Program-made: the position numbers and the translations under genes
Shown: positions 3,224 through 14,033 of the stretch, in pieces
Layout: each line of letters starts with the position of its first letter
Position numbering within the stretch: the first letter of the stretch is position 1
Notes under the pieces: model-generated
What the model was told of the DNA's origin: nothing
Databases searched by the model: none
Seen by the model: the letters and a program-made list of their open reading frames with translations, nothing else
Virus record (IMG/VR): IMGVR_UViG_3300030388_000656
Coordinates: 1 to 53,368 of that record
Direction: 5' to 3' (one strand)
Length of the DNA stretch: 53,368 bases
Source: a virus
Lineage: Duplodnaviria > Caudoviricetes

Positions 3224-3398
3224 TATTTCTATAGTCCTCTAAAAAACCTAATAAAACTATTATGTTCATAGATAGAGACGATACAACTTCTACTACATCG
3301 TGAAAGTCATGAATAGATAAGTGTATGTGGCCCACTACCCAAAAAGGAATAGCTAAGTTTTGGCTGATCCATACTACTAAAAACCTAATGAACCCCAT
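3192..3398 (-). CDS. Small membrane protein
   Basis: Two hydrophobic segments. Confidence 0.55.
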   Translation of the reverse strand: MGFIRFLVVWISQNLAIPFWVVGHIHLSIHDFHDVVEVVSSLSMNIIVLLGFLEDYRNNGNDRTTNTK

Positions 3399-3407
3399 AA
3401 TACAAAT

Positions 3408-4631
3408 TTACAAAGATCTTTTAAAATGACTTAAGGTAAAATCTTTCTTCTTAATTACTGCCTTATAAATATCCTTTTCAATTCCTCCTTTACTGAAGAT
3501 CCAATACACATCAGATTCTAATCTTTCTTTGGTTGTCATCCTATCTCTTGACTGCCAGTAACTTGTAGCACTGAAGTCTATATTGTAGTACACCAGGGCA
3601 TCAGCATTTCTTAAACTTATTCCTTCACGACCTGAAACAATCTGTAATGCTATGGTTTTATTTGTGCTGTCAAAAGTAGGAAGGTCTACACATAATTCAC
3701 TTCCGTAAATTTCTTTCAAAGCACTTAGCTCCTGTTTAAATTTATAAAATATTCCAATCTTTTTTCCCTTAAATCTTTCTTTTATATATTCTGCCTTGCT
3801 ATAATCTAACACCATAGAGTTACCACTTTCAAACTTTATAGTTCCACTACACATCTGATGTACTTTAGTCATAAGTTTAACAGCTGTATCTGCGAGGATA
3901 ACTTCGTTCTGGCCCTCTACTACTAAATCTTTTTTTAGCTTGCTTATAAGGGCTAAGGTTTCTTCTTTTAGTTCTACCTCTAAAACATGTTCTGTTGTTT
4001 CTACAACAAACCCTGCCTGCTTTTGACTAAAGTTAATTGTGTAAGGTCGTAATTTTTCTATAATAGTTTTAGTTCCCTTTGAGTAATCGTTGATGTACAT
4101 GCCTCCTATCTTTTTCTTTACGATTGTAACATACTCCTTAGCAAACTGATAAAAGTTTTTGTACATAGAAAAAGGATTGCCTGGTATAAAATATACTTGA
4201 TGATACATCTGTGAGTATGACTCAGGAGTTGGTGTACCACTTAATAATATTACATAAGGCAAGGATCTTGCGATGATGTTGTTTACTTTTTTAGTTCTTC
4301 CACTTGGTTTAGGAAATGCTCCCATGCCATGAGCTTCATCACATATAACTACATCCCATCCTGTTTGCTTTACCTTGTGTAGAGACTCATAGTTTATAAC
4401 CTCTAACTCAAACTCAGGTAGAAGTAATTCAAAATCGTTTACAATACTGGAGATCGCTTTCTTCTTTGTAATAAACAAAACTTTTTTAGCTCCAATCATA
4501 TCACAAATCCCTAAGCTGGTTAAAGTTTTGCCTGTTCTAACTTCCATAGCTAAATACAGAAACTTAAACTTTTTTATTACTCCTACTCCTTGTGATATGA
4601 TTTCTTTCTGGTATTCTCTGAACTCAATCAT
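3408..4631 (-). CDS. SNF2-like superfamily 2 helicase
   Basis: Q motif REYQ, Walker A variant EVRTGKT, DEAH, SGTP, GISL, QSRDR. Start moved to ATG 4631 (MIEFREYQ), which forms an ATGA overlap with the primase stop. Confidence 0.85.
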   Translation of the reverse strand: MIEFREYQKEIISQGVGVIKKFKFLYLAMEVRTGKTLTSLGICDMIGAKKVLFITKKKAISSIVNDFELLLPEFELEVINYESLHKVKQTGWDVVICDEAHGMGAFPKPSGRTKKVNNIIARSLPYVILLSGTPTPESYSQMYHQVYFIPGNPFSMYKNFYQFAKEYVTIVKKKIGGMYINDYSKGTKTIIEKLRPYTINFSQKQAGFVVETTEHVLEVELKEETLALISKLKKDLVVEGQNEVILADTAVKLMTKVHQMCSGTIKFESGNSMVLDYSKAEYIKERFKGKKIGIFYKFKQELSALKEIYGSELCVDLPTFDSTNKTIALQIVSGREGISLRNADALVYYNIDFSATSYWQSRDRMTTKERLESDVYWIFSKGGIEKDIYKAVIKKKDFTLSHFKRSL

Positions 4632-7039
4632 ATACCTAACGATTCCTGTTTGATATAGTGAGACTTTCGTACAAACTCTATCCATCTTCCTATACCATCT
4701 CTACCTTCTAATGCTTTACACTCATGTTTAAATTCTGCATAAGACATTAGCCATTTACCAAATTCATTTCTGTTTACTGAGTCTCTACTCTTTGGAGCAT
4801 AGTCTGGGTATTCATCAACAAAGTCTAAGAATAAATCATTCTTATATATTCTATGGTCAGTTACAAGCTTTGGATGTGGTTTGCCATCTATAACTCCACA
4901 CCATTCTATAAATGAATAAGAAGTATTCGCTGCGAAGGTTCGAGTCTTTTGATTTATAAAATCACTTTTCAGTAGCCCTTTGTCTAAATATAATTGGAGG
5001 TTTGTAATCATGTAGTTATCAAACTGACACCAGTCATTGTCATCCCACTCTCCAAACATTAGTTTACCAAACTCTACCAGTGGTGTAAACTCTTTGGTAT
5101 AGAATTGATTTAATTCTAACTCCCATTTTCTTCGAGCAAATGAATTTCCTTTTCCTTTTATTGCATAGTTTGTAGTGATGGCAACCTTTGGAGATTTACT
5201 AAATGGAATCTTAATCGCATCCTTGTTTTTCTTCTCTAAGGTTAAACCTTCAGTGACAACACTAAAAAGTCTTTCAAAATTAAAGTTCTTTTTTACATCA
5301 TCAAAACAAAGTATCTGAGTATCTGCTGATACTAATTGATAAGCAAATGATTTCTCAAAGTTAAAAGACTTACCATCTATAACTACCATCTTCTTCATGT
5401 GAGAGATAGCAGTCATGTATAGTCCTTTACCTGTTCCACCTTCTGGATTGTCTGATATTATTTCATCATTCAATATTGTAGCTGGGCAATAAGATAAATT
5501 TTTCCAGCCATGCAATAGAAATCCTATAGTAGATTCCATTGACTTAGTTCTGTGAGGATCGCTACCAGCAATATTATTTACAAATGTTTTAAAGTCACAG
5601 CTTGTGATGTCGCAAAGGTCAAACACTCTATTTATAACATGGTCTTTCCAGACGTATCCACCTAAGTCTAAATAATCTATTGGAGTTACTGCATCCTTAG
5701 TAATTTTTACTGCACAATTTGTGTAATATAAGTAAGCAGTATCTTTTGTGTCAGCAATAAAGTAAACACTGATAGAAGATAGTAGAGTTAAGAACTCTTC
5801 TCTAAAATATCTTGTACACTCTGCAAAGTAATTATATATACTGGTGTCATCTACTTCCAATAAGTATTCTAAAACGAAATCTTTAATCTCTTTCTCGTTT
5901 GCGTGTTCAATTAAGTTGTTGGTTACTTTAACGAATACATAACTTTTACTTCCTTCAGGGCTGAACTTGTAGAATCCATTATCTTCTAAGAAGTTTTTGA
6001 AAGACATGTGTATTATTTTAACCACACCCTTTTCACTTTTGTTCCAGAATTTCTGTTCATCTAATTCTTCCTCAAATCTCCTTAGGACATTATCAATTAC
6101 TACATCATCTATAGAGGTCTCATCTTCCAGTGTGTTTTTGATTTCACTATTAGACAATCCCCTTCTCATCTTTGCTTTTACTGAGTTAACTCTTTCTTCA
6201 TCTTCGTAATACTTAGTTCCAAAGTTTTGTTTCTGGGCATAAGCAGACTTGATTGTTCTTTTTAGTTCTCCAGAAGTAAAGTCTTTTGATGTGAAAGGAC
6301 TCATTACATATTCAGCTAAAGTTTGAGTAACTCCAAAGTCATTAAACGCTGAAGCTAATATGTATATATTATTATTTCTTTCTCCATCTTTGAATCCGTA
6401 CTTTCTTTCCCACCACTTCATTAAGATTTCTACAATCTTATTCTCATCAGTGATAGGAATAGTCTGTACATCTTTATGTTTTATTACTTCTTGGTATTGT
6501 TGTTCTGTTATTTGATTGAATACACTTGACTGCTCATTAATAAAAATTAATGGATCATATGATTCATAACAAACTCTCGATACATTTCTACATGCCTTAT
6601 CAAAGTATTCGCTGTCGTAATGTACCTGTAGTGAATTAAAGAATTTTATATGTGTTTCATCTTCAGCTGGTATCTTAACCAATACTTTCAATCCCAATCC
6701 ACTGGGAGATATGAATACTGAATATGTGTATCTGTCTTTAGTTAGTCTTTCTTTTTCCTCTAACATTTGTTTTTCTGAAGGAAAATTGTCGAAGTCTAAA
6801 CATATCAACCCACTATGTAAAGTGATTGAAGAGTCATTTCTTTTAGTAAATTTACCACTAAAACAAATTGCTGGTAGTGATTGCTTTAATTGATTTCTTA
6901 TTTCTTTATCTGATTCTGATCGTATTGATCTTACTATGTCTTGTGATGCTCCCTGTTTTATTCTTTCTATTATTATACTTACATCTCTATAAAAAGGTTG
7001 AGCAGTATCTTTGATGTCCTTAAATATTGTTATTTCCAT
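4628..7039 (-). CDS. Primase-helicase (BT4734/VirE-N-like N-terminus, PriCT-like linker, C-terminal NTPase)
   Basis: KQSLPAICFSG...HSGLICLDFD...FISPSGLGLK...DKACRNVSRVCY (VirE-N/BT4734-like); GERNN (PriCT-like); Walker A GGTGKG and Walker B LCFDD. Confidence 0.85.
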   Translation of the reverse strand: MEITIFKDIKDTAQPFYRDVSIIIERIKQGASQDIVRSIRSESDKEIRNQLKQSLPAICFSGKFTKRNDSSITLHSGLICLDFDNFPSEKQMLEEKERLTKDRYTYSVFISPSGLGLKVLVKIPAEDETHIKFFNSLQVHYDSEYFDKACRNVSRVCYESYDPLIFINEQSSVFNQITEQQYQEVIKHKDVQTIPITDENKIVEILMKWWERKYGFKDGERNNNIYILASAFNDFGVTQTLAEYVMSPFTSKDFTSGELKRTIKSAYAQKQNFGTKYYEDEERVNSVKAKMRRGLSNSEIKNTLEDETSIDDVVIDNVLRRFEEELDEQKFWNKSEKGVVKIIHMSFKNFLEDNGFYKFSPEGSKSYVFVKVTNNLIEHANEKEIKDFVLEYLLEVDDTSIYNYFAECTRYFREEFLTLLSSISVYFIADTKDTAYLYYTNCAVKITKDAVTPIDYLDLGGYVWKDHVINRVFDLCDITSCDFKTFVNNIAGSDPHRTKSMESTIGFLLHGWKNLSYCPATILNDEIISDNPEGGTGKGLYMTAISHMKKMVVIDGKSFNFEKSFAYQLVSADTQILCFDDVKKNFNFERLFSVVTEGLTLEKKNKDAIKIPFSKSPKVAITTNYAIKGKGNSFARRKWELELNQFYTKEFTPLVEFGKLMFGEWDDNDWCQFDNYMITNLQLYLDKGLLKSDFINQKTRTFAANTSYSFIEWCGVIDGKPHPKLVTDHRIYKNDLFLDFVDEYPDYAPKSRDSVNRNEFGKWLMSYAEFKHECKALEGRDGIGRWIEFVRKSHYIKQESLGI

Positions 7040-7513: not shown

Positions 7514-7711
7514 TTAAATTGTTTTGTAGATTAATTTTTCCAACTGATTCATTGTAGCTTCCATGAGATTGTCTCTTTCAGCCTGAGTGTTGAGGTCGGT
7601 TGGAATTTGCAACCACACCACTCGTTTGTTTTTATTAAAGGGTTTCTTTAATAATATAGTTTTGAATATCTTCTTCAGCATCTTCTTTATAAAATTTATT
7701 AAACACTTCAA
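7514..7711 (-). CDS. Hypothetical protein (start uncertain)
   Basis: Fills the gap between the exonuclease and SSB-like genes. Confidence 0.5.
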   Translation of the reverse strand: MKCLINFIKKMLKKIFKTILLKKPFNKNKRVVWLQIPTDLNTQAERDNLMEATMNQLEKLIYKTI

Positions 7712-8405
7712 TTGCTTTCTCTACTTTTTCTTTTCCGTATTGCAGGAATGTTTCTGATGGATAGTATATACCTAACTCCAGAGTTGTTTTGTCAACTACA
7801 TAAAACACCATAGGCTTATTAAAAAACTGCTGGTATAAATATGCTTGGCTGTCGTAATTATATTTCCTTGCACTATACTTAAAGTCTTTTATGTTTCCAG
7901 TAGTTTTTAGATCAATGAGAAAGTCTTTACCAACTATGTCGGCTTTTCCTTTCCACATCATTCCAGCAACCTCCTGAAGAGCTGGTACTTCAAATTGATT
8001 ATCTTCAGAATAGATAGCATCATAGAACTCTAAATTATTGTTCATTGAAGCTATAGCTTTATCTGTTTCCTCTTTTTCTTTAGTAAGCATCATTAACTCT
8101 CTACCATGCTCCTGAATCTCTTCTTTATATTTCTTAGTATTCCTGCTGGATGCATCGATACTTATAAATTCATCATTGTCTATTTTTAAGGGTTCTAATA
8201 TAGCTGTGTGAAAATACCTGCCTATAAGCATAGGCTTTGTTATCTCTTTAGGTTTTCTAAAGCTTTTAGGATCATTAAGTAAAGTAATGATGTCAGAGTT
8301 AGATAAGAACTGCTGACCAAACTTACCATAGTATTGGTCATCATCTTTTAGTTTCTCTTTAATTTCAGAAACTAATTTTTCGTTATAGTTGGGAGGCACT
8401 TTCAT
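7635..8405 (-). CDS. PD-(D/E)XK exonuclease (RecE/ExoVIII C-terminal, DUF3799-like)
   Basis: LSNSDI, GRYFHTAILEP, KGKADI...IDLKTT, YDSQAYLY motifs. Confidence 0.85.
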   Translation of the reverse strand: MKVPPNYNEKLVSEIKEKLKDDDQYYGKFGQQFLSNSDIITLLNDPKSFRKPKEITKPMLIGRYFHTAILEPLKIDNDEFISIDASSRNTKKYKEEIQEHGRELMMLTKEKEETDKAIASMNNNLEFYDAIYSEDNQFEVPALQEVAGMMWKGKADIVGKDFLIDLKTTGNIKDFKYSARKYNYDSQAYLYQQFFNKPMVFYVVDKTTLELGIYYPSETFLQYGKEKVEKAIEVFNKFYKEDAEEDIQNYIIKETL

Positions 8406-9022
8406 TACTTAATAGATTTAGAAAGCTCCTTCTTAACTACAGCTTTAATGTTATACTTAACCTCTAAGTTTTTGATAATCTTAGGCAATCCTAACTCTTT
8501 GTTCTTAGCAATATAGCTCAAAACTTTTACCCAGTTAGTATCTCCAATATTTAACTCAACATGTGTTGATGTTTTAGGTACTGGTGACTTACTTACTGGC
8601 TGAGGTGTTGGTTGCTTAATCGTTTGCATCGTGTCCTCTCCAATCCATAAACTTAATCCTAATCCATGCATTGCAATTGCTTTAGCAGTAGATCTCTGGA
8701 TTGTTGTATTTACATCCATTGAAGTTACCTTCTCAATAGGTATAGAATTGTTTCTATAGTCCATTACTGGTAGGTAATCAATATGCTCCATGTCATCAAT
8801 AGTAATACCTACTTTACAATATGCAGTTTTACCATCAGTAAAAAAGTTTAGTCCAGTATGCTCTGATTCATATACAACTCTTTGTGCAGATGGATGTGCA
8901 GTTTTAATTAAGCTCCATGCTGAAGCCCATGACAGGTAACTGAATTTACCTTTCTTTTCGATTTTATCCTTTACAGATATGGAAGCAAGTTCCTTAAAAT
9001 AATTTTTCTTCTCTGTTGCCAT
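8405..9022 (-). CDS. Sak3/DUF1071-like single-strand annealing protein
   Basis: IEKKGKFSYLSWASAW, YLPVMDYRN, QRSTAKAIAMHGLGLSLW motifs. Confidence 0.85.
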   Translation of the reverse strand: MATEKKNYFKELASISVKDKIEKKGKFSYLSWASAWSLIKTAHPSAQRVVYESEHTGLNFFTDGKTAYCKVGITIDDMEHIDYLPVMDYRNNSIPIEKVTSMDVNTTIQRSTAKAIAMHGLGLSLWIGEDTMQTIKQPTPQPVSKSPVPKTSTHVELNIGDTNWVKVLSYIAKNKELGLPKIIKNLEVKYNIKAVVKKELSKSIK

Positions 9023-9425
9023 AATTGATTTGATTTAATTTATTTAATTTTAGTTGTTTATTTGCATATTTTTTAAGCAAAATCTCTCTGCTTGTCTTGA
9101 GTCTTTGTATGTGCTTATCGTTCTTTCTGGTATTGACTTCACTTCTGATTTTGTTCTCAATCAAATCCAGCTTTCTTTTATAGTTGTGCATCGATAATCT
9201 GATTCCTCCTTCTTTCCAGCCGAAGTCATAAAAGAATTTGTATTCCTCTTCATTGCATTCCTGAAAGTAATCTCCACTCCTGCCACAATTTAATATCTCA
9301 GTTTTTGAGCCAAACTTCTGGAGCTTTACTCCATTGTTTATAACACCAACACCATTAGGCATATTAACTTTCATAGCTACTATGTCATTAAGTGACTGAT
9401 CATATATGTCTTCTAAATTATACAT
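8994..9425 (-). CDS. Hypothetical protein
   Basis: Start moved to ATG 9425 (MYNLEDIY) to avoid a long overlap with 9418-9711. Confidence 0.6.
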   Translation of the reverse strand: MYNLEDIYDQSLNDIVAMKVNMPNGVGVINNGVKLQKFGSKTEILNCGRSGDYFQECNEEEYKFFYDFGWKEGGIRLSMHNYKRKLDLIENKIRSEVNTRKNDKHIQRLKTSREILLKKYANKQLKLNKLNQINYGNREEKLF

Positions 9426-9711
9426 TCTGAAGTTTGTTAACCACCTCCTGAAAGTCTTGGTCAGATTCAATAAGTTCTTTTGCTTTTTTATATCCATGGA
9501 TGATTGTAGAATGAGTTGTTGTATGCCCATGCTCCTCCAAGAATCTTTGTATGTATGATATTCTGATTGGTCTTTCCATACATAAGTAGTATAGCATCTG
9601 TCTTGCATCTACAATATCCCTACGTTTAGTTTTAGTAAACATCTGGTCTAATGATAGATGAAATTGGTCTGCTATTGCTGATGCATATGCATCAAAAATG
9701 TCTTTTTTCAT
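9418..9711 (-). CDS. DnaA C-terminal (domain IV)-like HTH protein
   Basis: TKRRDIVDARQMLYYLC...HSTIIHG. Confidence 0.75.
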   Translation of the reverse strand: MKKDIFDAYASAIADQFHLSLDQMFTKTKRRDIVDARQMLYYLCMERPIRISYIQRFLEEHGHTTTHSTIIHGYKKAKELIESDQDFQEVVNKLQNV

Positions 9712-9740
9712 TTGGTTGATTTGATTTAATTTGTAGATGG

Positions 9741-9772
9741 CTAAAGTAATTCTTTTTCAATTAATACGCAAA
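9741..9772 (-). promoter_or_regulatory. Bacteroidota-type promoter for the replication operon
   Basis: - strand TTTG-N20-TACTTTAG, one mismatch to the TAnnTTTG -7 box. Confidence 0.6.
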
Positions 9773-9778
9773 TTATGT

Positions 9779-10015
9779 TCAACTTTTCTTTATCCAGTCT
9801 ATTTCAAACTTAAGATGATTAATCGCTTTTTCAATATCTTCGATATGCTTTGCCTTGTTATTCATTCCTTCTTCTGTCTTCTTGCCACAGCGTAATAAAT
9901 AGCTGGTTGCAGTTCCTACATTGTATGACAAGCTCCAGTCTTCAATGACCTTCCTTGCTTCATAGCCATACACTTTCCCTATATAATAGGATGGTACATC
10001 AATTTTCTCACTCAT
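9779..10015 (-). CDS. DUF3310 (SaV-like) protein
   Basis: PSYY...EARKVI...YNVGTATSYLLRCGKK...EDIEKAINHL. Confidence 0.75.
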   Translation of the reverse strand: MSEKIDVPSYYIGKVYGYEARKVIEDWSLSYNVGTATSYLLRCGKKTEEGMNNKAKHIEDIEKAINHLKFEIDWIKKS

Positions 10016-10224
10016 TTCTTTTTAAATCTAAATTGTGACATATCATTATTGATTGTCATCGGCTTTCTGTATAACGGAATAAGAGAGGTAAACTTGTCGT
10101 TATCCTCTCTCCTTCCACTATTCTTAAAATAATCATCAAACTCAATTACATTACTCCTGTAGTTGTCTTCGAATTCTTTTAGTCTTTTGTACTCTTCTAT
10201 AAATTCTCTGGTATCTGGACTCAT
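10012..10224 (-). CDS. Hypothetical protein
   Basis: 70 aa ORF with ATGA overlaps on both sides. Confidence 0.65.
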   Translation of the reverse strand: MSPDTREFIEEYKRLKEFEDNYRSNVIEFDDYFKNSGRREDNDKFTSLIPLYRKPMTINNDMSQFRFKKK

Positions 10225-10823
10225 TCGACAATGATGTGTCTTTTACTCTCTTCTCTGATGTATTTTTTAGCTTCAACTAATGAAGTACCTAAAAACTCCA
10301 TACCCCACCAGTCGCAGTAGTATCCTATTCCACCATCGTAGTTTGGATGCTCATCTAATAACTTAGATAGATGGTATGTTTTCTTCTTATAAGTGTATTC
10401 AATTTCTTCATCAAAGTTTGGTTCATCGTATTCATCGTGCATAATCTGTTCTCCATTTTCATACTCCATCTCTCCTCCCCAGCCATTTTCTTCTTCCCAA
10501 TGGTAAATGAAGTCTGGAAAGTCCTTACTAAATAATTCAATGATGTTCATTCCAATACAGCTCCATGCTGAAGAGAAATTAATAGATCCCTCGTTTATGT
10601 CTATTTCGATGTCGTAACATCCCCATTTTGTATTCCAGTTATGAAGTCTCCATTCATACCATTTATGGTCTGCATCTCCCTTGTTTATCTCTGGAAGATA
10701 GTGTCTACATAAAGCTACTGGTTCTTCAGAATTCAATGTACTTTCCCAGTACTTTAGAATGTCTCTTTGTTTAGTGGTCATATCGTTACCGATTTGGATT
10801 CCACTCATTACATGATTTGGCAT
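10221..10823 (-). CDS. Api92/YubB-like ferredoxin-like domain protein
   Basis: MPNH start, WYEWRLHNWNTKW, FSSAW, WEEE..WGG motifs. Confidence 0.65.
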   Translation of the reverse strand: MPNHVMSGIQIGNDMTTKQRDILKYWESTLNSEEPVALCRHYLPEINKGDADHKWYEWRLHNWNTKWGCYDIEIDINEGSINFSSAWSCIGMNIIELFSKDFPDFIYHWEEENGWGGEMEYENGEQIMHDEYDEPNFDEEIEYTYKKKTYHLSKLLDEHPNYDGGIGYYCDWWGMEFLGTSLVEAKKYIREESKRHIIVE

Positions 10824-10842
10824 AATAGTTTTTGATTTTATT

Positions 10843-10895
10843 TATACTGACTACCTTTCGGTAGTTTCGGATACTGAATCCATCATCAGAGTATA
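10843..10895 (-). ncRNA. Type I hammerhead ribozyme HHR-1
   Basis: - strand RNA: UAUACU CUGAUGA U GGAU-UCAGU-AUCC GAA A CUACC-GAAA-GGUAG U C ^ AGUAUA. Full catalytic core, three perfectly paired stems, GUC cleavage triplet (cut between 10849 and 10848). Confidence 0.93.
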
Positions 10896-10896
10896 T

Positions 10897-11175
10897 TTAC
10901 AAGTGTCCTCCATACCCATTGGGAAGTTGGAATCTCCACTCGCTGTCGCTTTCTGGTTCGTTCATTCCTTCGTGGTCATGAACCCCACTACCAAACACAA
11001 TCTCAGTTTGGTTAATTAAATTATCTAAGACATCTACCCAGCTGTCTTCTATACTCATTAGGTAATCTGAAACATCTTCTTCTTTGATGTTCTCTGGTAG
11101 CTCTACCTCAATCTCGGTGTATTTATGATACACACTTCTCTGTTGTATTGTTACTGAATTTTTAGCCATTTCCAT
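10897..11175 (-). CDS. Hypothetical acidic early protein
   Basis: 92 aa ORF; stop codon ends 1 nt before HHR-1. Confidence 0.7.
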   Translation of the reverse strand: MEMAKNSVTIQQRSVYHKYTEIEVELPENIKEEDVSDYLMSIEDSWVDVLDNLINQTEIVFGSGVHDHEGMNEPESDSEWRFQLPNGYGGHL

Positions 11176-11390
11176 AGTTTTTCGGTTAAACTTAATTTAG
11201 GTACACAACCATATGATTCAAAGATTACATCCAGACTATTTATTTCTAATTCAATAAAGTGTTCTGAGTGTGGTGTGAAATCAAATGCTCCTGTTGTTGC
11301 GTTGTACTCTACTGCTTGCTCATCATACTTGTGATGGCACATCTCTTCAGCTATGTAGCGTTTGAGATTTTGTAATTCTACTTCATCCAT
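11151..11390 (-). CDS. Hypothetical early protein
   Basis: 79 aa ORF downstream of the promoter at 11431-11462. Confidence 0.65.
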   Translation of the reverse strand: MDEVELQNLKRYIAEEMCHHKYDEQAVEYNATTGAFDFTPHSEHFIELEINSLDVIFESYGCVPKLSLTEKLWKWLKIQ

Positions 11391-11430
11391 GTTGTTTAAT
11401 TTAATTTAATTAATAGTTATTTTATGTTCA

Positions 11431-11462
11431 CAAAAGTATTAAATACTTAGCTTAAATCCAAA
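11431..11462 (-). promoter_or_regulatory. Bacteroidota consensus promoter
   Basis: - strand TTTG-N20-TACTTTTG, a perfect -33/-7 match. Confidence 0.75.
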
Positions 11463-11654
11463 TTATACTCCGTAAATTAATTTGAGTAATATCCACAGGA
11501 GGTAAGACACTATAAGAAGGAAAACAGATGCTCCCAGTCCAAATACTAATGCCTCCAGTAGGAACTTAGATGGGTTCTTCTGGATTCTTTCCCAGTCAGT
11601 ATCCTCCTTGTAGTTGTCGTACTTCTTGTCGATTTTGTTTATTCTATCTTTCAT
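11463..11654 (-). CDS. Small membrane protein
   Basis: Long hydrophobic C-terminal segment. Confidence 0.6.
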   Translation of the reverse strand: MKDRINKIDKKYDNYKEDTDWERIQKNPSKFLLEALVFGLGASVFLLIVSYLLWILLKLIYGV

Positions 11655-11878
11655 AATCCTTGTCTTTTCTCATCAGCTAAGTCTTCTAAATAAGACTCAT
11701 GCCTGTTGACATTATACTCATCTTCATCAATGATTTCGCACTCATCTTTGCACTCATCACAGATGTAGCATCCTTCTACCTCTTCGTTCTCTTCAAACTC
11801 TTCGTATCCAGCTCCACAGCAAGTACTAACTTCCTCTGAGTAATCTGGAGAGGCTAATTTCCAATTGTCGTAATTCAT
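11651..11878 (-). CDS. Acidic zinc-ribbon-like protein
   Basis: STCCGA...CYICDECKDEC. Confidence 0.6.
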   Translation of the reverse strand: MNYDNWKLASPDYSEEVSTCCGAGYEEFEENEEVEGCYICDECKDECEIIDEDEYNVNRHESYLEDLADEKRQGL

Positions 11879-11888
11879 ATCTATTTAT

Positions 11889-12020
11889 TTATTTGTACCA
11901 ACCATAGGTCGGTAGTTTCTTGCATTGTCTTGTACTACTGCAAGAGATTAATGATAACAGCACAACCAAACAATATGTGTATGCCATGAGTTTTAAAAAT
12001 ACCTTTGTTGAGTTTTTCAT
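11889..12020 (-). CDS. 43 aa putative lipoprotein (missing from the ORF track)
   Basis: MKNSTKVFLKLMAYTYCLVVLLSLISC-SSTRQCKKLPTYGWYK; lipobox LISC; fills the intergenic gap exactly. Confidence 0.6.
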   Translation of the reverse strand: MKNSTKVFLKLMAYTYCLVVLLSLISCSSTRQCKKLPTYGWYK

Positions 12021-12022
12021 AT

Positions 12023-12325
12023 CTAAAATGGAAGTTCGTTAAAGCTATTTTCTATCTGGTCTGAATACCTTTTGAATATTTCATTCCAGTCAATACACTT
12101 GATATCTTCATACTCAAATTGCTCGCTGTCTACCAGTGACATGAATTCCGTTAAAGGATTGTCAAAGTTAGACTTATTGTCCAGAATAACACATAGTCTG
12201 TAAGTCTGTACATTTTTGTAGCCATAGAACTTCTCTTCTATGTCGTTCTTTTCTTTGGTAAGGTTCTCTACCAGTTCTTTGTACTTATTGATGTCTTCAA
12301 TAAGGTTCTTTGCAGTTAAATCCAT
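12023..12325 (-). CDS. Hypothetical protein with N-terminal coiled coil and C-terminal ELPF
   Basis: 100 aa ORF. Confidence 0.65.
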   Translation of the reverse strand: MDLTAKNLIEDINKYKELVENLTKEKNDIEEKFYGYKNVQTYRLCVILDNKSNFDNPLTEFMSLVDSEQFEYEDIKCIDWNEIFKRYSDQIENSFNELPF

Positions 12326-12346
12326 AGATCTATTTATTTAGGTTTT

Positions 12347-12394
12347 GAGGAACATCCCTCTACCACGAAATCCCCACTAATTTCTTAGTGAGGC
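12347..12394 (-). ncRNA. Unrecognised two-hairpin structured motif, copy B1
   Basis: - strand G CCUCACUAA-GAAA-UUAGUGGGG AUUUCGUGGUA GAGGG-AUGU-UCCUC; covaries with the copy at 13390-13436. Confidence 0.6.
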
Positions 12395-12395
12395 A

Positions 12396-12435
12396 TGGGT
12401 ACGTTATCGTATCCTTCTGGGTACGTTATCGTATC
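12396..12435. repeat. 18 bp perfect direct repeat x2 (22 bp period)
   Basis: tgggtacgttatcgtatc at 12396-12413 and 12418-12435. Confidence 0.9.
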
Positions 12436-12659
12436 TATTTTACTGGTTTCCTTCCTACATGATTGAAAAGGATGTAAAGACTATCTGTCTTATGCTGGTA
12501 CTCATTGTAGGTCTTTTGCAACTCGTAGTCAATTCGTTCTCTCTCCATTAATTGTAGCGTTGAGAATTTATATGAACTACATGATTGTAGTAAAAATGAT
12601 ACAGCCAGAACTACAAATGCATATCGCATGTAGTAAGTGAAAATTGTTTTTAAACTCAT
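12435..12659 (-). CDS. Putative lipoprotein
   Basis: Hydrophobic signal ending LLQSC, followed by SS. Confidence 0.6.
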   Translation of the reverse strand: MSLKTIFTYYMRYAFVVLAVSFLLQSCSSYKFSTLQLMERERIDYELQKTYNEYQHKTDSLYILFNHVGRKPVK

Positions 12660-12660
12660 C

Positions 12661-13008
12661 TTAGTTGTTTGTATTAGTTATTATTGCTTGCTCTTCTTCT
12701 GTATACTCTTGGATGTCTACCAGTTTACCATCTATCTCTTCGTACTGGATATCTTCATCCTCTACCCAGTCTGTCCAGTAATAAATCTCATCGTTGTAAG
12801 CCCATTCCATTAATTCTTCATCAGTCATCTTGCTTGGGTACAGCTGGTTTCCATCTTCATCCTCTGCTGTAAAATCTTGACCTCTCAAGGTGTCAATTAA
12901 GTCCTTGTCATTTGCAATATACTCGTGGTCGTTGTACAGGTAACCTTCGTTCATACCCTCTCCAGTTATACCACATTGTCTTGCCCAAAAAATTCTTTCT
13001 TTACTCAT
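12661..13008 (-). CDS. Hypothetical acidic early protein
   Basis: Start moved to ATG 13008 (MSKERIFW) because the track start at 13080 lies inside HHR-2. Confidence 0.7.
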   Translation of the reverse strand: MSKERIFWARQCGITGEGMNEGYLYNDHEYIANDKDLIDTLRGQDFTAEDEDGNQLYPSKMTDEELMEWAYNDEIYYWTDWVEDEDIQYEEIDGKLVDIQEYTEEEQAIITNTNN

Positions 13009-13036
13009 CTTATTTGAATTAGTTTGTATCATTATT

Positions 13037-13089
13037 GATAGTGACTGCCAGCTGGCAGTTTCGGATATTAAATCCATCATCAGACTATC
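13037..13089 (-). ncRNA. Type I hammerhead ribozyme HHR-2
   Basis: - strand RNA: GAUAGU CUGAUGA U GGAU-UUAAU-AUCC GAA A CUGCC-AGCU-GGCAG U C ^ ACUAUC. Full core with compensatory changes relative to HHR-1; cut between 13043 and 13042. Confidence 0.93.
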
Positions 13090-13372
13090 TGCTTCCCTCC
13101 ATGCAGTCTTTAAACATTATCCAGTCAGATACTTTCATGTCTTCAAATATCACATGTCCAAGCACGCTTACTAACTCCTCTTTCATTGTAGTTTGTGCCA
13201 TGATTAATCTAAGTTTTGGATAGTAGATACCTCCCATTTCATATGAGATTTTCTCTTCATCTTCTGGAGTTAATGTGTCTTTGATTCTGATACAATTCAT
13301 CTCTCTCTGAATTAACTCATTTCTGAAATCGTGCTTTAACATCTGTACTTGGTTTAAAATCTTTGCGTTCAT
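13085..13372 (-). CDS. Hypothetical early protein
   Basis: 95 aa ORF; its TAG stop lies within stem I of HHR-2. Confidence 0.7.
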   Translation of the reverse strand: MNAKILNQVQMLKHDFRNELIQREMNCIRIKDTLTPEDEEKISYEMGGIYYPKLRLIMAQTTMKEELVSVLGHVIFEDMKVSDWIMFKDCMEGSR

Positions 13373-13389
13373 GTCTTTAATTTTAGTTT

Positions 13390-13436
13390 AGGAATAGTCC
13401 TGTACCACGAAATCCTCGCATATTTCTATGCAAGGC
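13390..13436 (-). ncRNA. Unrecognised two-hairpin structured motif, copy B2
   Basis: - strand G CCUUGCAUA-GAAA-UAUGCGAGG AUUUCGUGGUA C AGGA-CUAU-UCCU. Confidence 0.6.
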
Positions 13437-13455
13437 TTTCTCTGGAGAGGGGTTT

Positions 13456-13752
13456 CTACGATATTCTCGGCACAACAGCATCATCATCTGGGTTGTTTGC
13501 ACTTTCATATATACCTATGAAGTCATGCACTACATCCGTTAACCTGTGCTTACTGAGTCTATTCATTCCGTATTTTGTTACTTCCTCTACCCATTCTTGA
13601 TTGGTTTCTACTACTTGTTTGAGCATGTCTCTTACTGGCTTATTCTCTTGCTTAGAGATTTCTAACATCCAGTTCATAGGCATGAGAATATCTAATCTCA
13701 TTACTAATTCTTGTCTCTTTTGTTGTGCTAAAATTTGATTGGAAATATGCAT
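13456..13752 (-). CDS. Hypothetical early protein
   Basis: 98 aa ORF. Confidence 0.65.
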   Translation of the reverse strand: MHISNQILAQQKRQELVMRLDILMPMNWMLEISKQENKPVRDMLKQVVETNQEWVEEVTKYGMNRLSKHRLTDVVHDFIGIYESANNPDDDAVVPRIS

Positions 13753-13772
13753 GGTGTTTTTGGTTTATTAGA

Positions 13773-14033
13773 TTAGTATAATTCTGATTTCTCGATGTTC
13801 TTGATTTCGTATTTTGGTAGCTCTTCGCAGTACTCTGAGTACTTGTTAAATGAATGCTCACACTTTCTGTCGATTTGTCTCAACTCCTTAGAATCGTATT
13901 CACATACGTTCTCATCTAAGTTGTCATAGACTAAGTCTCTGGTGTTATTGAATGCGTTGTGCTTTACCAACCAGTTAACTGCCTTAGTTACCAGTGGCTG
14001 ATTTTTAGACTTGATAGCTGTAAATTTACTCAT
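13773..14033 (-). CDS. Hypothetical protein, first gene of the early operon
   Basis: 86 aa ORF about 40 bp downstream of a -7 box. Confidence 0.7.
   Translation of the reverse strand: MSKFTAIKSKNQPLVTKAVNWLVKHNAFNNTRDLVYDNLDENVCEYDSKELRQIDRKCEHSFNKYSEYCEELPKYEIKNIEKSELY

Follow-up and report, generated by a model that had tools for sequence, protein, structure and literature searches.

Type I hammerhead ribozymes are the usual kind in bacteria and bacteriophages, where their role is still described as open (PMC6155905, PMC6765202, PMC13725137, the last from 2026). Clustered hammerheads of prophages were reported to cleave in vitro within their native polycistronic transcripts of ~2 kb; three tandem arrangements were cleaved in vitro, and it was proposed that such ribozymes cut long transcripts into single-gene or operon-length mRNAs (Perreault 2011, PMC3088659). 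According to the same report, the identities of the genes flanking the hammerheads are not constant. Natural deviations from the consensus core have also been described. The CChMVd(+) hammerhead carries an extra A10 between A9 and G10.1 (De la Pena and Flores 2001, summarised in PMC3705267), the change of this residue to U raised the rate of cleavage in trans 3-4 fold while C or G was detrimental (PMC3705267), and the minimal hammerheads of Penelope elements conserve a nucleotide at the same place (PMC4209133). In linear RNA viruses, type I hammerheads of UTRs and intergenic regions are reported to enable translation; they fill a short intergenic region and cut a few nucleotides before the next start codon, and the survey in question set aside its DNA bacteriophage hits as already described (PMC13725137).

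The stretch of DNA analysed here, called the window throughout, is a 53,368-bp virus record estimated to be 88% complete; the DNA runs that contain it are marine and marine-sediment metagenomes, and no RNA run is listed among the sequencing runs containing it. As in the prophage and phage clusters of Perreault 2011 (PMC3088659), several co-oriented hammerheads lie between genes of varying identity, and the kind is thus one already known from phages. The cases tested in that report were from bacterial prophages (Clostridium scindens, Azorhizobium, Agrobacterium) and comprised types I, II and III, whereas those described below are all of type I with an extra U and come from an uncultured marine phage.

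Two type I hammerheads in the window

An earlier note on this DNA had proposed a type I hammerhead (HHR-1) at 10843-10895 on the − strand. Each element that it listed lies at the position given for it and all consensus core positions are present; judged by its sequence, HHR-1 is confirmed as a real hammerhead, correct to the base. A second copy (HHR-2) was first seen with a loose core pattern, as a near-identical core at 13043-13083 (−). Both have type I topology, with stem I open and stems II and III capped by loops. The parts of the two elements and the genes next to them are as follows (all on the − strand).

10843-10895: HHR-1, complete type I hammerhead, 53 nt
10895-10890 with 10848-10843: HHR-1 stem I, 6 bp, open (UAUACU, AGUAUA)
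10889-10883: HHR-1 core, C3-A9 (CUGAUGA)
10882: HHR-1 extra U
10881-10878 with 10872-10869: HHR-1 stem II, 4 bp (GGAU, AUCC)
10877-10873: HHR-1 loop II (UCAGU)
10868-10866: HHR-1 G12-A14 (GAA)
10865-10860 with 10855-10850: HHR-1 stem III, 6 bp (ACUACC, GGUAGU); A15.1-U16.1 is A10865-U10850
10859-10856: HHR-1 loop III (GAAA)
10849: HHR-1 C17; predicted cut 10849/10848
10896: unpaired conserved A directly 5' of HHR-1 stem I, the single nucleotide after the stop TAA
10841-10842: unpaired conserved AA directly 3' of HHR-1 stem I
10824-10848: predicted A-rich 5'-OH leader of the downstream mRNA, 25 nt from predicted cut to ATG
10897-11175: gene upstream of HHR-1, 92 aa, no family; stop TAA at 10899-10897
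10221-10823: gene downstream of HHR-1, 200 aa, weak Api92-like ferredoxin-like domain (PF18406)
13037-13089: HHR-2, same 53-nt build as HHR-1
13089-13084 with 13042-13037: HHR-2 stem I (GAUAGU, ACUAUC)
13083-13077: HHR-2 core (CUGAUGA)
13076: HHR-2 extra U
13075-13072 with 13066-13063: HHR-2 stem II (GGAU, AUCC)
13071-13067: HHR-2 loop II (UUAAU)
13062-13060: HHR-2 G12-A14 (GAA)
13059-13054 with 13049-13044: HHR-2 stem III (ACUGCC, GGCAGU; AGCU between the strands); A15.1-U16.1 is A13059-U13044
13043: HHR-2 C17
13090 and 13036: HHR-2 flanking A residues
13085-13372: gene upstream of HHR-2, 95 aa; stop TAG at 13087-13085, inside the 5' strand of stem I
12661-13008: gene downstream of HHR-2; its listed start, 13080, lies in the ribozyme core

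The stem I sequences of HHR-1 and HHR-2 are wholly different yet paired, and their stems III differ by a paired change from A-U to G-C. The window was scanned with a structural descriptor (stem I of at least 4 bp, CUGANGA, 0-1 inserted nucleotides, stem II of at least 3 bp, GAA, an A...U stem III of at least 4 bp and H17). Exactly two sites were found, 10843-10895 (−) and 13037-13089 (−), both with stems of 6, 4 and 6 bp and one inserted U; 300 dinucleotide-preserving shuffles gave one site in all. A covariance model built from relatives (see below) scored the two sites at 68.2 and 69.7 bits, values that are partly by construction since both were among the 18 training rows, and the next best site of the window at 12.0 bits.

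Isolated HHR-1 (63 nt) folds into the three-way junction in both the minimum-energy (MFE) and the centroid structure (−13.3 kcal/mol, z = −2.23), and 6 of 200 shuffles fold as well. Stem I of HHR-1 is the weakest in the family, with one G-C pair; its outer pair is U-A, where 36 of the 40 rows of the alignment A2 described below have G-C. Folding was also computed in a 181-nt context, a calculation that leaves out co-transcriptional folding and tertiary contacts. In the minimum-energy fold of HHR-1, stem III alone survives (MFE frequency 0.026), stem II being lost because its 5' strand pairs with GGAAUCC inside the downstream gene. HHR-2 keeps stems II and III in its fold (MFE frequency 0.002, z only −0.89). 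Both ensembles are very diffuse.

Rfam models and distribution

The check with Rfam hammerhead models that the earlier note had suggested turned out negative. At gathering thresholds the whole window gave 0 hits and 13 of the 24 contigs with relatives gave no hammerhead hit, their sole hit being a DUF805b RNA (RF02914; 38.9 bits against a threshold of 35.6) at 250-282 (−) of L005, a contig that also has four hammerheads. Under permissive settings the only hammerhead-type match of HHR-1 was RAGATH-1-hammerhead (RF03152; 21.1 bits, gathering threshold 56.3, E = 0.16), HHR-2 had no hammerhead match and the remainder was snoRNA-type noise. The models Hammerhead_1, _3, _II, HH9 and HH10 gave no match at E ≤ 10 for HHR-1, HHR-2 or a no-insert sibling. 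RAGATH-1 resembles HHR-1 in being of type I with a short stem I, a CUGAUGA...GAAAC core and a long stem III. Membership of HHR-1 was rejected on the score (21.1 versus 56.3 bits) and on mismatched pairs in the upstream (5' accessory) hairpin; HHR-2 does not match at all. Since the no-insert sibling, which has a canonical core, is missed as well, the extra U is not the reason, and we attribute the result to a gap in the models. We read the Rfam result as a probable false negative, the gathering threshold being operational rather than defining for a ribozyme.

Among GenBank phages nothing matches positions 9000-14000 of the window, and blastn of a 66-nt stretch with HHR-2 against 50,697 deposited phage records returned only two chance-level hits (E = 6). 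The exact form had 0 matches in one genome per species from 185,579 prokaryote species. A looser pattern, for whose 17 fixed bases we calculate ~70 chance matches, found at least 120 stretches in prokaryote genome contigs; among the matches listed, 7 of 120 loci pass the descriptor and ~4 are convincing, all of them on metagenome-assembled contigs. We did not find this subfamily, or phage hammerheads with an extra U, described in the literature, although the supplementary alignments of Perreault 2011 may include it.

Conservation and covariation among relatives

Relatives were collected with the pattern CTGATGATGGATNNNNNATCCGAAAC, in which nothing is specified beyond the core, the U, stem II and the two opening bases of stem III. 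Besides the two sites in the window's own record, it matched 26 sites on 24 uncultured IMG/VR viral contigs. At all 26 the free flanks close a stem I of at least 6 bp and a stem III of at least 4 bp that has U16.1 and then H17 at its end, while a laxer rule was satisfied by 199 of 5000 random anchors. Among the 28 sites (26 matches and the two window copies), stem I takes 14 different sequences and stem III takes 17, with C at H17 in 27 sites and A in one. A looser viral scan returned at least 117 stretches, mostly chance matches that are not hammerheads, and some further members were gained. Over 143 loci, the descriptor gave 93 hits (78 unique) among the matches listed.

Two alignments were made. 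A1 consists of the 18 distinct hits with the exact 53-nt layout of the window copies, drawn without gaps from the 93 hits among the matches listed. All of its 288 cells in the three-stem structure are paired, a figure that is partly by construction as the rows were chosen by a descriptor demanding pairing (the 26/26 closure test is the unbiased one). In A1, 12 of 16 pairs are changed on both sides, and the covariation score is 0.819 against 0.171 in shuffled alignments (0 of 500 shuffles reach it) and at most 0.125 in slid controls. A2 was obtained by running the A1 covariance model over the window and contigs L001-L024 (48 hits, 40 distinct rows). Here 99.3% of 602 cells are paired and compensatory change is seen at 14 of the 16 pairs; again no shuffle in 500 reaches the score. 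The only pairs that never vary are G10.1-C11.1 (39/39) and A15.1-U16.1 (38/38 rows with letters), which are the two kept by the hammerhead consensus. C3, U4, G5, A6, G8, A9, G12, A13 and A14 are invariant in all 40 distinct rows and N7 is the sole varying core position (U in 31, C in 6, A in 3), counts that lean towards consensus as the model penalises core changes. The heavy compensatory change in all three stems of the relatives supports the type I hammerhead reading.

In two metagenome runs (X9 and X10), contigs resemble the window over the HHR-1 ribozyme alone and diverge beyond it; they were matched at a likeness setting of 80% and belong to other organisms. Their variants of HHR-1 include one that lacks the extra U, two stem II pairs altered on both sides (10880 with 10870 and 10879 with 10871) and a matched insertion on both strands of stem III.

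The hammerheads of one contig all lie on the same strand (among the matches listed). We also observed that one stem I sequence can be reused by all 3-5 hammerheads within a contig, with differing stems II and III: GGTTAA/TTAACC in L005, L006 and L008, GATTAA or GATTAG in L014 and L016, and GCACAT in L059. Such reuse would give all downstream mRNAs of that phage the same first six nucleotides; HHR-1 and HHR-2 do not share stem I. Long insertions in stem III (~50-75 nt in all), possibly an extra folded domain, are found at L006:10499-10604, L014:3000-3105, L022:8854-8952 and L077:2359-2452.

The extra U and the residues around stem I

In both window copies one U (10882, 13076) stands between A9 and G10.1, and the G10.1-C11.1 pair is present. 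A nucleotide at this place is U in 27 of the 27 A2 rows that have one and is absent in 13 rows, a count to be read in the light of collecting patterns that fixed the extra U. At the sites with C, A or G at N7, which these patterns could not select, it is U in 5 of 5 among the matches listed (L006:11081, L015:10635, L059:4065, L059:5095 and L254). Forms with and without the insert but with the same stem II coexist on one contig in L008, L014 and L022. The extra U departs from the consensus core, and to judge by the published cases it is a documented natural deviation (PMC3705267, PMC4209133). Like the CChMVd(+) and Penelope hammerheads described there, those studied here have one unpaired nucleotide between A9 and G10.1, which in our case is always U. 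However, CChMVd is a type III viroid ribozyme and the Penelope ribozymes are those of eukaryotic retroelements, thought to be dimeric, whereas the present ones are monomeric, of type I and encoded in phage DNA, with a stable 6-bp stem III and no-insert siblings on the same contigs.

Residues next to stem I and in loop II were counted in 50 members, among the matches listed, whose stem I has 6 bp and whose stem II hairpin is 13 nt long. Directly 5' of stem I, 48 of 49 members have an A; directly 3' of it, 50 of 50 have an A, which is followed by another A in 37 of 49. Loop II has the form U-N-A-R-U (U 50/50, any nucleotide, A 49/50, then A, U or G, and U 48/50). Both window copies conform (A10896, A10842 and UCAGU in HHR-1; A13090, A13036 and UUAAU in HHR-2). 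The earlier note was correct that HHR-1 begins 1 nt past the stop of 10897-11175 (TAA at 10899-10897, A at 10896, stem I from 10895), and this nucleotide is the nearly invariant A of the family, not a spacer.

We infer that these conserved unpaired residues, the flanking A and loop II, may form a tertiary contact, because a 6-bp helix I with a 4-bp helix II is the geometry of canonical type I hammerheads with touching loops. In canonical metazoan type I hammerheads, likewise, helix I has 6 bp before unpaired nucleotides and helix II has 4 bp (PMC4209133, PMC6155905), and conserved unpaired residues occupy the same places as the A on each side of stem I and the U-N-A-R-U of loop II. They differ in that stem I here ends at unpaired residues, with no closed internal loop, and in that a long, stable stem III here takes the place of one of 1-2 bp; the loop contact of the present family is a predicted one. 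Watson-Crick pairing of loop II with the A-rich 3' flank into a pseudoknot was considered by eye and rejected: HHR-2 fits it partly and HHR-1 poorly.

Position between stop and start codons

Placement was analysed for the 84 of 93 descriptor hits with stems of at least 5, 4 and 4 bp, reduced to 76 by removal of duplicate contexts (among the matches listed), with ~3000 random positions on the same strands as control. In 69 of 76 an upstream ORF of at least 40 codons ends within −30 to +12 nt of the ribozyme 5' end (random, 0.213), in 60 of 76 an ATG opening an ORF of at least 40 aa lies 8-45 nt past the cut (random, 0.194), and both hold in 55 of 76 (random, 0.040). Leaders are mostly 18-45 nt in the family (among the matches listed). 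Often the ribozyme itself supplies the stop codon, either through a TAA where stem I ends or through the UGA in its core. The linear RNA viruses mentioned above show a comparable arrangement (PMC13725137), but they are eukaryotic and depend on cap-independent translation, in contrast to a DNA phage with bacterial translation.

Most flanking proteins are not related to one another (144 of them form 113 clusters, 92 being singletons, among the matches listed), in agreement with the inconstant gene identities reported in Perreault 2011; none of the four proteins flanking the window copies has a relative among the 144. The cut proposed at 10849/10848 leaves, by position, a leader of 25 nt (C17 at 10849, ATG at 10823), the cut itself being predicted; HHR-1 is followed by AAUAAAAUCAAAAACUAUU and then by the ATG of 10221-10823. 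The product of this gene had been called YubB/Api92-like. The Api92-like part is marginal (PF18406, DUF1281_C, 21.8 bits against a cut-off of 22.8, E = 1.8e-4), and YubB was returned by no search. The gene also matches phrog_12644, of unknown function (E = 2.7e-10), and a homologue search with the protein found no relative.

HHR-2 comes after the third small ORF of the − strand block. Its core together with the extra U, CUGAUGAUGG, contains two in-frame AUGs and two in-frame UGAs, and the ORF listed as 12661-13080 starts inside it (13077-13080). Because of these AUGs and UGA stops, gene callers extend the downstream ORF into the ribozyme and set its start wrongly. The start candidates are ATG 13032 (10-nt leader) and ATG 13008 (34-nt leader), the second of which aligns with the start of a homologue in contig L264 (54% identity). 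This related phage has no hammerhead before the homologous gene; it has hammerheads at 1216-1265 and 3311-3359 (+), at other gene junctions, and thus ribozyme positions shift between related phages. Both L264 hammerheads are of the no-insert form, and the second, with a score of only 26.2 bits, has an unusual beginning of stem II, an A in place of the expected G10.1.

Window genes run on the − strand from ~14033 down to 961 and on the + strand from 14069 on, and both hammerheads are on the coding strand of the − block. Among the genes of this block are the following.

9418-9711 (−): DnaA-C helix-turn-helix protein
8405-9022 (−): Sak single-strand annealing protein
7635-8405 (−): exonuclease VIII-like protein
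4628-7039 (−): BT4734-like primase (BT4734-like N-terminal domain, 76.5 bits)
3408-4685 (−): SNF2 helicase

The block would be an early replication and recombination module, 'early' being deduced from gene content. Promoter-like sites between 8000 and 20000 were not above chance (41, against 48.2 in shuffles), and a terminator scan of the same region found none at either ribozyme. Taken together, the BT4734-like domain and leaders devoid of a Shine-Dalgarno-like sequence may point to a host in the Bacteroidota, whereas AGGAG follows sibling ribozymes on other contigs. In run X10, a contig of depth 18.4 (39 letters on its shorter side) joins 10500 to 12364, skipping 1863 bases with HHR-1 and about seven small ORFs, and may stem from a relative without this block or be an artefact of the 80% likeness setting. 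In a metatranscriptome library (X22), a 166-nt contig matches 10941-11103, inside ORF 10897-11175, with one differing letter; as DNA can occur in such libraries, this is no evidence of transcription or of transcript ends.

Proposed mechanism and alternative explanations

We consider it likely that both elements are genuine type I hammerheads, transcribed as part of a long early message of the − strand, which they would cut into separate mRNAs. Folding would follow as soon as the polymerase has released the 53 nt of a ribozyme with the flanking A at either end, and the ribozyme would cut itself after C17 (10849 in HHR-1, 13043 in HHR-2). By established hammerhead chemistry, the upstream cistron would retain its stop codon and finish with the complete, structured ribozyme, which carries a 2',3'-cyclic phosphate at its 3' end, so that the mRNA of 10897-11175 would keep the body of HHR-1, and the downstream cistron would begin with a 5'-OH and a short, unstructured, A-rich leader (25 nt after HHR-1, 10 or 34 nt after HHR-2). 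The short AU-rich stem I is proposed to let the products part, which would make the cut effectively irreversible. An operon transcript would in this way become separate mRNAs with uncoupled stability and translation, presumably to the benefit of the phage.

So short a motif in AT-rich intergenic DNA, for which no Rfam model reaches threshold, might be suspected of matching the hammerhead consensus by chance; this explanation is refuted by the shuffles (one descriptor match in 300, against two observed) and by the relatives, where 26 of 26 close both free stems and 14 of 16 pairs are compensatory, and its probability is close to nil. It is quite unlikely that the extra U has produced a catalytically slow or dead hammerhead shape, serving as a structured 3' end or a protein-binding site between cistrons. 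The insertion does sit inside the core junction, natural core insertions of low activity are reported (e.g. A6a, saltern variants; Perreault 2011, PMC3088659) and competing folds arise in longer context. Yet all catalytic positions stay the same in 40 of 40 rows although the stems drift freely, a pattern that would be difficult to account for if there were no catalysis; forms with and without the insert share their stem II on one contig (L014, L008, L022), and U at the same position raised the activity of CChMVd(+) (PMC3705267).

Mobility of the ribozyme provides another explanation, which we regard as unlikely: a selfish cassette, spreading within and between phages with or without a small gene, could persist because it is harmless. 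It would account for the unrelated flanking genes (92 singletons in the 113 clusters of 144 proteins, among the matches listed), for the shifted position in L264 and for the reuse of stem I (e.g. GGUUAA/UUAACC in L005, L006 and L008), as expected from intragenomic copying, and self-cleaving ribozymes are common in selfish elements (Perreault 2011, PMC3088659). Against it, the strict placement (55/76 versus 4%, among the matches listed) and the gene-aligned orientation speak for selection at the level of the mRNA; the two window copies have no repeats, integrase or transposase beside them, and they have only core and stem II in common and not their flanks. We find it very improbable that the pair serves to excise a 2194-nt RNA (13042 to 10849) that is circularised, or spliced out, by the reverse reaction or by an RtcB-type host ligase. 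Two co-oriented hammerheads would leave 5'-OH and 2',3'-cyclic phosphate ends, which are ligation substrates by established chemistry, and the possibility was raised in Perreault 2011 (PMC3088659); however, that report sought spliced or circular products and describes none as detected. Moreover, UAUACU of HHR-1 and ACUAUC of HHR-2 pair at only 4 of 6 positions, which would make ribozyme-templated joining poor, and the fragment holds ordinary genes, each with its own start.

Within the favoured reading, cutting of the − strand message into separate mRNAs, a more specific version may be put forward tentatively, although we think it rather doubtful: the family may be a translation-gated mRNA cutter. 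Among the 69 of 76 members with a nearby stop (matches listed), most stops abut the ribozyme or sit inside it, so that a terminating ribosome would have to unfold the ribozyme, the cut could occur only in ribosome-free intervals and it would report translation of the upstream gene. If this were true, the design would hinge on the type I layout: the ribozyme would stay on the upstream mRNA as a protective 3' cap, and each downstream mRNA would receive a uniform, unstructured 5'-OH leader resisting 5'-monophosphate-dependent decay. The family would then be a natural counterpart of engineered ribozyme insulators, with the invariant flanking A and the U-N-A-R-U loop II as a previously undescribed open-ended tertiary clamp.

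Implications

By their sequences, HHR-1 and HHR-2 are two clean examples added to the known phage hammerheads. The marks of their subfamily are the U that follows A9, the invariant A residues beside stem I, a loop II of the form U-N-A-R-U and a strict position between stop and start codons. As this coherent phage subfamily is undetected by every Rfam hammerhead model run, automated annotation misses it, and recognition of the ribozyme corrects gene starts, as at 13080. The function of genome-encoded hammerheads in bacteria and phages has been called an open question (PMC6765202, PMC6155905). The positional rule found here, stop codon, ribozyme, leader of ~18-45 nt and start codon, makes 'mRNA processing' a testable design.
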